Notes: generated from the letters alone by a model not told the origin. Shown: positions 42,329-50,988, counted from the stretch's first letter. The stretch: DNA of 64,000 nucleotides from a virus (IMGVR_UViG_3300031703_000001:43391-107390); one strand, 5' to 3'. Program-made: numbers and translations.

Positions 42329-44809
42329 TTAACCTCCCATTTTTCCTGTATAGAATGGAACCACCATCCTTTTTATTTCTTTTCCTTTTGCTGCACCTGT
42401 TGGGTAACCTAGAGAAGCCTGCCTTGCAGCTAATTCTTCTTGACCTTGATTTCCATATGCACGTTGTGCAGAAGGCATCTGTCTATATTTTAAAAACATA
42501 TCCATATCCTTTGCAGTACCGCTAGGATTTTCTCTTCTATATTCAGACATTGCTTTATATAAAGCTTGATCTCTTGATTCTTGAGTTTCAGGAGCACCTA
42601 CTTTTTCAAAGGCTTTGGCATTTGTAAATCCTATTGGACCTCCCGTTGTAGGATCAATTGCAAAGTTATCAAAAGTACTATTCAAGTTATATGTATTAGC
42701 TCTATTAGTTAATGCAGCATTTTGTAATTTAACGTTTTCACCAACCTTCCAGTTTTTGAAGTTATCATGTTTTTGCAAAACATTTTGAGTATCATCATAA
42801 ACCTTTGTTTGCCTTCTTGCATTTTCAGTATTTGCTCTATCAGTATACTGCGCTTGTAGTGCACCATACTGGTTAGCTATACCAACATTATTAGTATTAA
42901 CTCTATTAATTGCTTTGGCATTTGCATCCATTGCTTGACCTTGTATTTGTGAATTTGCCACGGCTTGAGGTCCACCAACTGCTCCTAAAGCATTAGCCAC
43001 AGTACTTGCAGATGCATTGTTGGAATTAACAGCAGATCTCCAATCATCAAATGTAGGCGCTAACTGAACTGTCTCAGCTGTAGGTGCCCATGGTAAATAT
43101 AAATTATCATCTATCTGACTTAGAGCAGCCAAGTTGTTTTGATCTTGTAACCAAAATTCCATATCAGGCTGAACATACGCATCAGGATCTTTAACTCCTA
43201 TATCAGGTCTACTTGGTTCTTCACCATATACAGCTTCATCAGAAAAAGAGTTGCTCTTGGTAAGCTTAGGTGCATTAAAAGTATGTAAACCATATTTACC
43301 ATCATAACCCGTTCCTTCAGTACCTTTTTCTGTAAACCATGGTTCATAAGGAACTCCTGCTGCTAAAGCATCCGCTTTTCTTTCTACTTCTATATTTTTT
43401 TGAAAGGCTCTAGTTTGTTCTTTAGGCATGTCCCAACTCCAAGTTTTACCTGAATCTGCCTCATACTTTTTCATAGCAGATCCCCATCTTCTTTCTAAAT
43501 CTAATCTTGCTTCTGGAGTTTGTATATCATTTGAACCATAAGTACCTGTTCCTGTAGAGTTTTGAAATGTAGGTCTATTTACATCAGCTCCTGAATACAT
43601 TCCATTATCATTAAAGTATTCAGCATTTTCTCCAAACGCTTTATCTTGACCTTCAATAGCTTCATTATAAATTGGTCTTGAACCTTTACCTTTTAAATCT
43701 CCAGCTTGACTTCTGTCTACTTGATTATTTGATGTATTTGGTTTAGAGTTTATAGATGCTTTTGTTTTCCCATTAGGTAACGTTGTATATGTTATTGTAG
43801 CACCTTTCTTTAATTCAGGAAGCCATTTAGCCCATTGTGCATCAGATACACCTGGATTTTCAAATTCAACCTCATCATCTGTAGAACCTGTATTACCAGT
43901 TCCTGTTTGAGCTTTCCTTAATGTTCTTTCACCACCAAACCTTGCTAGAATAGCACTGTCCATTTCAACACCTTGCTCAGGCATTTGTTGTTGTTGACCT
44001 TCAGGTATTTGACCTTGTTCAGGTTGTTCCATTTGAGCCATCATCTGTTGCATTTGTAACATTTGCTCTAATTGCTCTGGTGGCATTGCAGCCATTGCTT
44101 TCATTTGTGCTTCTTGCATAGTTATTTCTTCCATCTTTGCTGTAAATTCAATTGGGTCTATTCCTTGCTGAACCAAATAAGGATGGGCAGCCAAAGGTAC
44201 ACCTTCTTCAAATTTCTTTTTTGATTCTTGTGTAAATGCAACTTTAGAAAGATTCATCATATTCTTCTTCAACATTAATTCTGCTGTAGTAGCTTGAATC
44301 TTATCTGCATAAGGAGATTCTAAATGTGCATAGTAATCATTTAACTGATACTTCTTTGATAACTTAGCAGGTGTCATTTTCTTTTTGGAGTTAATTCCAA
44401 ATTCTGATAACTCATCACTAGTAAATTTCATTTTATCTGTATCAGAATAAATAAATGATTGTTCAGGTAAGAACATTGGAACTCCACCTTTAGAGTGTCT
44501 AGGCCCCTTAATGTCATATAAACCAAATGTACCATCATTAGTTAAATCTGTTAATACAGTTTCTCCACCTTCTGCTTCTATATTAGCATTGTCTTTAGGA
44601 ACACTTGATAGACTGTATCTTACACTCTTGCTATCAGCGTCATTAAAGTTATTATTGCTATAGAAGTCTTGTGGAGTTGTCACCAAACCATAATCAGCTT
44701 GATCACCAGTTTGTAGATCACCACCGTTCTTCATAAATTTGTCTTCAACAACTTTGCCGTCAACTAATTTAAATCCTTCTGGTAATTTATTTATTTTAAT
44801 TTTTGCCAT
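42329..44809 (-). CDS. virion cargo protein
   Basis: IEAEGGE...GPRHSKGGV domain seen in crAss-like structural modules; Q/M-rich linker; several xxG[GK] motifs. Confidence 0.65.
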   Translation of the reverse strand: MAKIKINKLPEGFKLVDGKVVEDKFMKNGGDLQTGDQADYGLVTTPQDFYSNNNFNDADSKSVRYSLSSVPKDNANIEAEGGETVLTDLTNDGTFGLYDIKGPRHSKGGVPMFLPEQSFIYSDTDKMKFTSDELSEFGINSKKKMTPAKLSKKYQLNDYYAHLESPYADKIQATTAELMLKKNMMNLSKVAFTQESKKKFEEGVPLAAHPYLVQQGIDPIEFTAKMEEITMQEAQMKAMAAMPPEQLEQMLQMQQMMAQMEQPEQGQIPEGQQQQMPEQGVEMDSAILARFGGERTLRKAQTGTGNTGSTDDEVEFENPGVSDAQWAKWLPELKKGATITYTTLPNGKTKASINSKPNTSNNQVDRSQAGDLKGKGSRPIYNEAIEGQDKAFGENAEYFNDNGMYSGADVNRPTFQNSTGTGTYGSNDIQTPEARLDLERRWGSAMKKYEADSGKTWSWDMPKEQTRAFQKNIEVERKADALAAGVPYEPWFTEKGTEGTGYDGKYGLHTFNAPKLTKSNSFSDEAVYGEEPSRPDIGVKDPDAYVQPDMEFWLQDQNNLAALSQIDDNLYLPWAPTAETVQLAPTFDDWRSAVNSNNASASTVANALGAVGGPQAVANSQIQGQAMDANAKAINRVNTNNVGIANQYGALQAQYTDRANTENARRQTKVYDDTQNVLQKHDNFKNWKVGENVKLQNAALTNRANTYNLNSTFDNFAIDPTTGGPIGFTNAKAFEKVGAPETQESRDQALYKAMSEYRRENPSGTAKDMDMFLKYRQMPSAQRAYGNQGQEELAARQASLGYPTGAAKGKEIKRMVVPFYTGKMGG

Positions 44810-44811
44810 GA

Positions 44812-50000: not shown

Positions 50001-50988
50001 AGAAAAATCTACGCGGCTCATCAACATCTAACATTTGTGTAAGTGCTGGATCTGATGTATTAGCAGCTCTCTTTGTTGCATTTGCATAGAACTCTGAAGG
50101 CTTACTATTAAACCAATTTCCATCAGCATATTTAGTTACATCATCAAATGCTGTATTAGTAACATTGGCATCTTCAAATCTATTTAATCTTATTGCTTTT
50201 GATTTAGGTACTTTTTTAACTCCAGTATTAGTCCAGATGCTAACCATTTCTTCAGCTACATCATCAGCAATTTTTTTAATTGTAGGTGCAGCTTTTTTAA
50301 TTGTAGGAACTGCATTCTTACCTTTTGATAAATAAGCAGGAACAATAGGTATTGCACCTAATGCATTAAAACCAGCATCTAAATATTCACCTTTATCATA
50401 ACTTTTTTTTGCTTCTTGTCCATATTTAATCCAAGCAAATGGATTAATCATATCTGCTACATTATCAAAAGCATTTCTATCTGGATTATCTAATGGTAAA
50501 TTATCAGGTATATCTTTATTTCTTGCACTATACCCAAAAGAAGTCATAGGGCTTGCTAACATATCTAATGTTCTTTGTCCCCATGAAGGTTCTTCATATG
50601 CTTTTATTGTACCTGTATCAGGTGCTTTAAAATCAGGATTATTCTTTTGATACTCAGCAATGTATTTAGAGTAATCAGTTTCACCATTTTCCAGTTTAGG
50701 TAATTCTTTACCATCCTGTGCTAAAGGTACTTCTAAGACACTATCTCCAGGAAAAGTATAGTTCATACCTGGCATCATAGTTTGTCTATTACCAAGGTTG
50801 TCTGTACCTACTACAGGAAAGTTTACACCTTCCATAGTTATATCTCCTGAAGGAATTATATTATAGGGGTTGTTTACATCAGGACTATCAGATTTATATC
50901 CATCTATAGATAGAAATTCATGTATATCCGTAATGTATTCATTTGGACCTCCAACTAACCCTATTGATTTTCTTTCTTTATGTGCCAT
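47089..50988 (-). CDS. multidomain virion protein: pre-toxin/ART-like module, SLT-like lysozyme, 2x LysM, YkuD L,D-transpeptidase-like domain, second SLT-like domain
   Basis: LysM YTVASGDNLGKIA and YKVKSGDTLGKIA; IAQVES..STATGLYG; VIDKK..AIHGT..SNGCIN; GTESEFG..VGYTQI..LLDPAKA. Confidence 0.8.
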   Translation of the reverse strand: MAHKERKSIGLVGGPNEYITDIHEFLSIDGYKSDSPDVNNPYNIIPSGDITMEGVNFPVVGTDNLGNRQTMMPGMNYTFPGDSVLEVPLAQDGKELPKLENGETDYSKYIAEYQKNNPDFKAPDTGTIKAYEEPSWGQRTLDMLASPMTSFGYSARNKDIPDNLPLDNPDRNAFDNVADMINPFAWIKYGQEAKKSYDKGEYLDAGFNALGAIPIVPAYLSKGKNAVPTIKKAAPTIKKIADDVAEEMVSIWTNTGVKKVPKSKAIRLNRFEDANVTNTAFDDVTKYADGNWFNSKPSEFYANATKRAANTSDPALTQMLDVDEPRRFFSMMTDEATFKSMSGSNMPQRARDMSGGSGAAFHPDEAVLPPELVNMMREAKDQTASWFNTSIVNTKDGMQEMLDFYKKYGGSLRKAQEGKEISKPKTWQETTIDLEGIKRGIAQVESVNGVLMVNPESTATGLYGQRFSEVEKGKLYEGTRAEFAKDLDAQNEIFDIRLNKGFDATETTPLLKDAFDLTVEYKSQLGDKWNYSYEDLIGLSNFLGRGGARKYLGNVVRDGKSLESVYPHLYGNGKKQSNKKPEEYLKTLREYYQYGGERDNVYNPYETYVQPQDNTYVARPDMYQMNDESLIETNGSTIPTFSIDSNEGFNAIEAKAGNKKYTVASGDNLGKIANRYNTSVDELVKLNNISDPNSISVNQELNIPEAPSTAAVSPIYKVKSGDTLGKIAKAYKTSVNTLAKLNGISDVNKIAVNQEIAIPDTYRADVPMPEENWYNVDELKKNNDNINSQSDGDIIIKSQMLNNPNQSYVVIDKKTGLLKVYRGDHEDLSFEVLTGSNRGDAQTVTKMKDLNKDGKITDEDKINGKWKTDWTAGNKSTGAGRYTINQSSPTSKKKYQNAPSWNLLNDNGIQVGTAIHGTTNYRKQFYNDGDATNNSASNGCINGQCSDLDALYNLGLPTGTPVFILPEDEGNHFELNDGVAVMRMNKENRENYISQYKDQTGKLQDQQGGNYTTNTLSYKPIRANFDEETFMEERFTVLDFDDTEELNNTTYPFIHALENNKQQIMSAAQISGDVYNQIAKIAFGIYGTESEFGDTHGIVGNALRGANKKFGSDGSSPDVQRKYQGFDIPFTDVGDGAQSDNNSVGYTQIRWSQLNDKEKSILNAFDITSNKDLLDPAKAAIATASILGVRYNEQLTADQKKDMWNTLPTKWNNRPNYSKRVKANSKYLNFEQKDVMKKGGETENHIMYKNYVDGVYDGNKMEVTAGKVYDKLNRMHYKDAKAMNMTPANYILTHIVGQR
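50272..50313. repeat. 21-nt in-frame tandem duplication (AVPTIKK/AAPTIKK)
   Basis: ttttttaattgtaggtgcagc followed by ttttttaattgtaggaactgc. Confidence 0.8.

Follow-up and report, generated by a model that had tools for sequence, protein, structure and literature searches.

A conserved short motif at module borders and ends of crassvirus cargo proteins

Genes and motif copies at the locus

The locus examined here lies within a 64,000-nucleotide stretch of DNA (hereafter the window; bases 43391-107390 of the 107,390-bp IMG/VR phage record IMGVR_UViG_3300031703_000001, estimated completeness 94%), in which three consecutive genes encode large proteins that carry multiple copies of a short glycine-containing peptide motif. 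The source virus is a marine crAss-like phage, with tail ring protein 2 (58047-58718), ring protein 1 (57160-58047) and the muzzle protein (50988-57137) identified by Pfam in the window, and the crassvirus major capsid protein, portal and large terminase found in the remainder of the genome. On the minus strand the genes run in the order ring protein 2, ring protein 1, muzzle, a 1299-amino-acid (aa) protein (P0001; 47089-50988), a 738-aa protein (P0002; 44812-47028), an 826-aa protein (P0003; 42329-44809), and proteins of 1070, 4688 and 1976 aa. By BLASTP, the 4688-aa protein (the giant protein) is related to crAss001 gp47 and gp50 and the 1976-aa protein to crAss001 gp49. This gene order, together with the identities of the ring, muzzle and giant proteins, places P0001 to P0003 in the position of the crAss001 cargo proteins C1 and C2 (PMC10172136), and all three motif-bearing genes lie between the muzzle and the virion RNA-polymerase genes, the gene position characteristic of crAss_CARG1. 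The proteins named as cargo in an earlier annotation of the window (the original prediction) therefore do sit at the crassvirus cargo position, and they are probably carried in the particle and injected.

P0001 consists of a 93-aa conserved N-terminal block, a variable middle region and a 58-aa conserved C-terminal block. Pfam matches were limited to two LysM domains and one YkuD domain, all in the middle region, which give P0001 the at least two unrelated effector-type domains by which polyvalent proteins are recognised; two further SLT blocks and a toxin-like module that had been proposed for it had no match, although SLT and ART-PolyVal domains do occur in relatives at this position. P0002 begins at a GTG codon at 47028, ten codons before an internal ATG. 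This start, which the KQMGG copy of the motif requires, is supported because the ten residues ahead of the ATG (VKVNKISLKQ) are conserved in homologues, for which database gene calls often begin at the internal ATG (MGGQ...). P0003 has an invariant N-terminal region, and it and its relatives always end in GKMG followed by one variable residue. No NCBIfam match was found for P0002, P0003 or the two small basic peptides described below, neither P0002 nor P0003 had a tblastn match among 50,697 phage records, and sequence searches of the PDB returned LysM relatives only. The AlphaFold model of P0003 was poor, with a mean predicted local distance difference test score (pLDDT) of 55 and every motif copy in stretches of pLDDT below 50, including the invariant N-terminal 130 residues; motif stretches modelled at such low confidence and yet invariant would fit folding on binding. 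The best explanation is that the three cargo proteins are largely disordered strings of modules.

Every motif string quoted in the original prediction was found where it had been reported, with copies distributed along all three proteins (minus strand; residues are followed by window positions). P0001 carries a leader copy SIGLVGGPN (8-16; 50941-50967), PLAQDGKELP, which closes the conserved N-terminal block (88-97; 50698-50727), a double copy YKKYGGSLRKAQEGKEIS (405-422; 49723-49776), EYYQYGGERD (590-599; 49192-49221), and DVMKKGGETE, which opens the conserved C-terminal block (1234-1243; 47260-47289). P0002 carries a leader copy SLKQMGGQS (7-15; 46984-47010), LQAQEGVEIK (133-142; 46603-46632), for which homologues have AKSGIEIKP, PQFQEGSEVD (200-209; 46402-46431), a double copy EGFKYGGSLKKYQMAGQP (520-537; 45418-45471) whose second half is degenerate (G to A), and GTAKYGKEVG directly ahead of an invariant C-terminal helix (705-714; 44887-44916). 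The copies in P0003 are a leader copy KFMKNGGDLQ (24-33; 44711-44740), in which 20 homologues show no variation at M26, G29 or G30, a double copy ILARFGGERTLRKAQTGT (287-304; 43898-43951) followed by a hypervariable, insertion-rich stretch, GAAKGKEIK (805-813; 42371-42397), and the C-terminal copy PFYTGKMGG (818-826; 42332-42358). As had been predicted, copies were also present in two small basic peptides encoded on the same strand: a 97-aa peptide with four x-GG copies (14626-14919), which has homologues in the complete relatives G001 and G002, and a 58-aa peptide starting MNNKLLTKKFMDGG (12341-12517).

The original prediction had written the motif as [AYFM][QK].G[GK], an expression that is enriched, with seven matches across the three proteins where composition-preserving shuffles gave 0.97 (Poisson 7e-5), but that is narrower than the list of copies given with it, fitting 7 of about 16. 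Two further matches were found in the 97-aa peptide and scattered singles only elsewhere in the 107-kb genome. As this expression was written after the proteins had been seen, an independent 7-column position matrix was trained only on non-window homologues of P0002, and the whole phage proteome was scanned at a threshold of at least 10 bits. P0001, which is otherwise without similarity to P0002, had four matches against 0.17 expected (P 3e-5) and P0003 had two against 0.21, with none in the muzzle (2049 aa) or the 1070-, 4688- and 1976-aa proteins; the capsid protein, the portal and a 434-aa acidic (scaffold-like) protein likewise had no motif matches. The proteome-wide scan thus upheld the claim that the motif is commoner than chance in the three cargo proteins, and also its reported absence from the replication enzymes, in which chance-level singles occurred. 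One such single, MSKYGGG in the ribonucleotide reductase large subunit (17298-18947, plus strand), scores as a match and is conserved in G001 and G002; in all likelihood this conserved enzyme resembles the motif there by chance. In its extended form, derived from the untrained P0001 class, the consensus reads L-P-[KM]-A-[QK]-x-G-G-E-hydrophobic; paired copies have a preferred spacing of nine residues, and [FY]-G-G often lies nine residues ahead of the consensus.

Conservation and module exchange among relatives

Metagenomic homologues numbered 116 for P0002 and at least 780 for P0003; for the latter, a related-locus search with the single sequence found none, whereas the alignment used as query retrieved loci. 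The homologue alignments show conserved motif columns set between flanks that are variable or contain large insertions, and in the P0002 family duplicated motif copies flank insertions. Across 80 related IMG/VR loci, taken with 10-kb flanks and compared with shuffles, there were 157 matches against 14.8 at the P0001 position, 333 against 18.6 at the P0002 position (the training family) and 113 against 17.8 at the P0003 position, compared with 11 against 7.2 for the muzzle, 16 against 13.0 at the 1070-aa position and 64 against 29.4 for the giant protein, an enrichment of 6- to 18-fold in the three cargo genes only. In two complete relatives scanned end to end, the motif was restricted to the same three genes behind the muzzle, and both also encode small basic peptides with several GG copies. 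All three cargo proteins have conserved leaders of 10-28 aa ending in GG, and a GG falls among the 40 N-terminal residues of 62/62 P0001-, 66/72 P0002- and 79/79 P0003-class members, compared with 0/78 and 1/77 for the two genes that follow. Codon choice for G, K, Q, A and E differs among the 19 window copies, which have at most about 9-11 identical bases in common, and therefore selection acts on the peptide rather than on the DNA.

In an all-against-all BLASTP comparison of 63 P0001-position proteins, 44% of internal alignment ends fell within 10 residues of a motif copy, compared with 6.6% for random positions, a figure to which two borders common to these proteins contribute much (one near residue 93, the other some 60 residues before the C terminus), such that the events are not independent. 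These proteins have only the N-terminal 93 and C-terminal 58 residues in common, and their middle regions contain differing sets of LysM, SLT, PG_binding_1, YkuD, ART-PolyVal and SET domains. The clustering of alignment ends at the copies bears out the earlier claim that the motif marks module borders. Relatives do exchange modules at the motif, a check for which the original prediction had called, and its phrase 'plug-and-play payload' is a fair description. Its further proposal, that the motif serves as a recruitment tag and/or a maturation-protease site, is a hypothesis that goes beyond these observations.

Comparison with crAss001 gp45 and with known processing systems

The gene for C1 (gp45) of the Bacteroides phage crAss001 lies directly after the muzzle and before the RNA-polymerase genes (Bayfield et al. 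2023; PMC10172136), as do the cargo genes here, and gp45 resembles their products in having an N-terminal MAK(K/I)KI... leader ending in GG, in this case FDTGG, with a C terminus that reads ...LTYG. The half-motif A[FYE]GG occurs in gp45 at residues 207, 261, 330, 425 and 560 (five copies against 0.2 expected), with none in gp46, gp47, gp49 or gp50. By hhalign, a module of about 55 aa in the P0002 family and its two flanking GG copies align to gp45 residues 375-443 (E 2.4e-5, probability 76%), and this motif-flanked module, NKGKFTA...NFA.NA..W, gives the P0002 family a sequence relationship to gp45 outside the Pfam domain. That domain, crAss_CARG1 (PF25725), covers the portal-bound region of gp45 (424-555) and was not found in P0002 or P0003 even at E 10, nor in a six-frame search of the genome. 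An hhalign comparison of the P0003 family with gp45 found nothing; weak leads to CARG1 were obtained for P0003 residues 1-240 (ESM Atlas 0.92 with 169 shared features; Smith-Waterman z 2.4), and the invariant N-terminal region may possibly be CARG1-like.

Two segments of gp45 are ordered by cryo-electron microscopy, residues 214-245 on tail rings 1 and 2 and residues 425-552 on the portal wing (PMC10172136). The former starts four residues after the copy at 207-210, and the latter starts exactly at A425-F-G-G and stops eight residues before the next copy. Given that A425FGG lies inside the modelled 425-552 segment, as stated in PMC10172136, and that the hhalign alignment makes it homologous to a copy in the P0002 family, one homologous copy is intact in the mature virion. 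The two phages differ in that crAss001 has one such protein where this phage has three and two small peptides, and in that the crAss001 copies consist of the A-[FY]-G-G half only, mostly without the K-A-Q-x-G-x-E half. The motif goes unmentioned in PMC10172136 and is apparently undescribed, as no description was found in the literature searched; it is real, widespread, specific to the cargo strings, and conserved from marine to gut crassviruses.

Polyvalent proteins of phages and conjugative elements (PMC5512222) resemble the cargo proteins in being large, in being delivered with the DNA, and in combining unrelated enzymatic modules, with ART-PolyVal, SET and peptidoglycan-acting domains found in relatives at the P0001 position. 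A candidate zincin-like HExxH domain would be a further likeness, with the difference that here it is located in the neighbouring giant protein and not inside the three motif-bearing proteins. In prohead processing, T4 gp21 cuts at L/I-x-E and phiKZ-like gp175 at S/A/G-x-E, and internal or ejected head proteins have short N-terminal targeting peptides. These sites end in Glu, as do the many copies here that read G-x-E; however, no assemblin-type protease gene was found here, the capsid protein is without a site, and many copies lack Glu. Adenovirus protease recognises (M/I/L)XGG-X and (M/I/L)XGX-G in the core pre-proteins pVII and pX/mu, which are similar to the present system in the Gly-Gly core after a hydrophobic residue and in the presence, within a capsid filled with DNA, of small basic precursors that have several sites. 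They are dissimilar in that no clan CE protease was found here, the register of the hydrophobic residue varies, and the conserved A-[KQ] and Glu positions of the motif have no counterpart.

Candidate proteases and the function of the motif

The slightly preferred reading, to which a probability of about 0.4 is assigned, is that the motif is an uncut docking or hinge junction peptide of ejected cargo proteins rather than a protease site. Each module and protein end would be bounded by [FY]-G-G-x-L-P-K-A-Q-x-G-G-E or one half of it, with the copies acting as recognition and hinge elements that remain in the chain. The strings would be recruited to and held on symmetric interior parts, such as the portal wing, the tail-barrel rings and perhaps the inner capsid wall, and at ejection the modules between copies would unfold and thread out one by one. 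Because every module would have the same joint, modules could be inserted, lost or exchanged without disturbing assembly. Several points weigh against this. The docking evidence comes from a distant phage and involves one or two copies, the parts named as binding partners are candidates, and it is not obvious why docking would need between four and eight handles per protein, or four in a 97-aa basic peptide. The arrangement of a short conserved leader with a fixed motif after it also resembles the cleaved targeting peptides of T4 and phiKZ-like phages. Further, in peptide-mass fingerprinting of the published matrix-assisted laser desorption/ionization lists for crAss001 gel bands (Shkoporov 2018), gp45 (91 kDa, equimolar with the portal) did not exceed decoys in bands 5-7 (the gel region surrounding the 85-100 kDa bands), and it is not listed in Shkoporov 2018. 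In the same analysis, with band sizes inferred from band order, gp47 and gp50 were found in band 3 (about 270 kDa assumed) and gp49 in band 4 (about 150 kDa assumed), bands that fit their predicted sizes, and they thus appear full length; the portal was clear in band 5, and the fibres were in bands fitting their full predicted sizes. The failure to detect gp45 in bands 5-7 would also fit fragmentation, which leaves room for cleavage.

A tentative alternative, regarded as possible but doubtful, is that the motif is the site of a cargo-packed protease that cuts the strings in the head or after injection, removing the leaders and freeing the effectors and small basic peptides. This would account for the placement of the motif in disordered linkers at module borders, for conserved leaders that end in GG, for the failure to detect full-length gp45 in gel spectra that do show the equimolar portal, and for the conservation in relatives of multi-copy small basic peptides, which recall adenovirus pX/mu, cut at (M/I/L)XGG-X. 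The best candidate enzyme, and the only candidate virion-associated protease that sequence points to in the genome, is an HExxH...E region of the giant protein (residues 1951-2450; 31676-33175, minus strand), which contains a conserved YHEAFH (32777-32791) and a downstream invariant EEY; this block (residues 2078-2150) is present in nearly all giant homologues whose sequence reaches the region, and HExxH was not found in P0001, P0002 or P0003. Zincin domains have been proposed to process polyvalent phage proteins, with no site motif defined (Iyer et al. 2017; PMC5512222). Were the zincin of the giant protein to cut the modular cargo strings into injected effectors and small DNA-binding peptides, itself a rather improbable proposition, the motif would be the first processing site to be defined for polyvalent proteins of phages, and modules would behave as cassettes, any one of them placed between two motifs being packed, injected and released.

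The zincin fold of the region is not supported by Foldseek, which returned nothing with a model of mean pLDDT 62, and is weakly indicated by VIA-align, in which the best match was a putative metal-dependent hydrolase (3dl1; Z 5.5, 86 residues, root-mean-square deviation 3.3) and the part after the HExxH block matched the phi14:2 virion polymerase (6vr4; Z 5.3), both below kinship level; ESM Atlas gave LPD39 at 0.90. The N4 virion polymerase, with the same kind of zincin, is moreover packed unprocessed (PMC5512222). Pfam scans of the proteome found no head protease and no peptidase other than DUF2201_N, and six-frame hidden Markov model searches of the 94%-complete genome found no Peptidase_S78, S77, C5 or C39 at E 1. 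These searches thus found neither a prohead serine protease gene nor, in the motif scans, a site in capsid or scaffold, as in maturation of the T4 gp21 or HK97 gp4 type, nor a Peptidase_C5 or C39 gene for adenain-type or C39 processing. Cleavage is also difficult to reconcile with the distribution of the motif, which is missing from the capsid, portal and scaffold-like proteins and almost missing from the giant proteins, and no one cutting register suits every copy. Cleavage after GG conflicts with the intact A425FGGW of crAss001, cleavage of the G-x-E type would not work where E is missing, and cleavage ahead of the motif would not work at the C-terminal copy. P0003 ends at the motif, and therefore nothing is left for cleavage to release there.

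Two further observations concern the candidate enzymes. The 4688-aa protein (24959-39025, minus strand) is a fusion of crAss001 gp47-like and gp50-like parts, with the HExxH...EEY block directly ahead of the part with the weak match to the phi14:2 virion polymerase. A DUF2201_N metallopeptidase and vWA protein (HELLH; G000 40162-41325, plus strand) lies just left of the window, where it adjoins a MoxR-like ATPase among replication genes; this MoxR-associated protein is a less likely second protease candidate, as is a host enzyme.

Less probable again, and considered unlikely, is a passive joint: the motif would be a glycine turn that keeps the folding of adjacent modules separate and lets the chain bend as it threads, conserved by descent through duplication with no specific partner. 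The invariant glycine with its predicted disordered surroundings, the duplicated copies that flank insertions, and the restriction of the motif to proteins that must pass the tail channel are all in keeping with this. However, about ten positions are conserved across otherwise dissimilar proteins in phages that are only 35-50% identical, which exceeds what a flexible linker needs, copies are present at the extreme N and C termini where a hinge is unneeded, and the giant proteins also thread out yet are without the motif. A joint at the DNA level, in which microhomology promotes module shuffling as do the conserved boxes in T-even tail-fibre genes, would fit the break in homology between relatives at the motif, but the codon diversity of the 19 window copies shows conservation at the peptide level, and this explanation was rejected as highly improbable. 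A Pup-like reading of the GGE ending was dropped as unsupported.

Crassviruses are among the most abundant gut and ocean phages, and they select, store and eject several megadaltons of cargo protein. The motif provides a concrete handle on these three steps, from marine phages to the cultured crAss001, and can be used to predict genes for injected proteins in metagenomic contigs. A docking or cleavage code, should the motif be one, would also explain the free exchange of effector modules among these phages.

Other features of the genome were noted alongside the cargo genes. The N terminus of the portal (G000 11061-13805, minus strand), MKVLNAMQLKNGAKAEGGP, resembles the cargo leaders, a likeness noted in the portal of this phage only. 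A GroEL-type chaperonin (Cpn60, E 1e-75) is encoded at 8435-10066 (plus strand), with a Cpn10 co-chaperonin in a small neighbouring gene, and the pair might help to fold giant or modular virion proteins. On the minus strand, the products of three genes at 10151-12316, 12997-13275 and 13280-14623, all fibre-like or small proteins, have similar N termini (MSIFIQEVLGLLKIGKRK, MSTLLQDMMGMLSRKK and MNILTDVLSLFKRKKF), probably a shared attachment peptide, and one of them, a 721-aa protein, contains the internal repeat RTYGVQFND.

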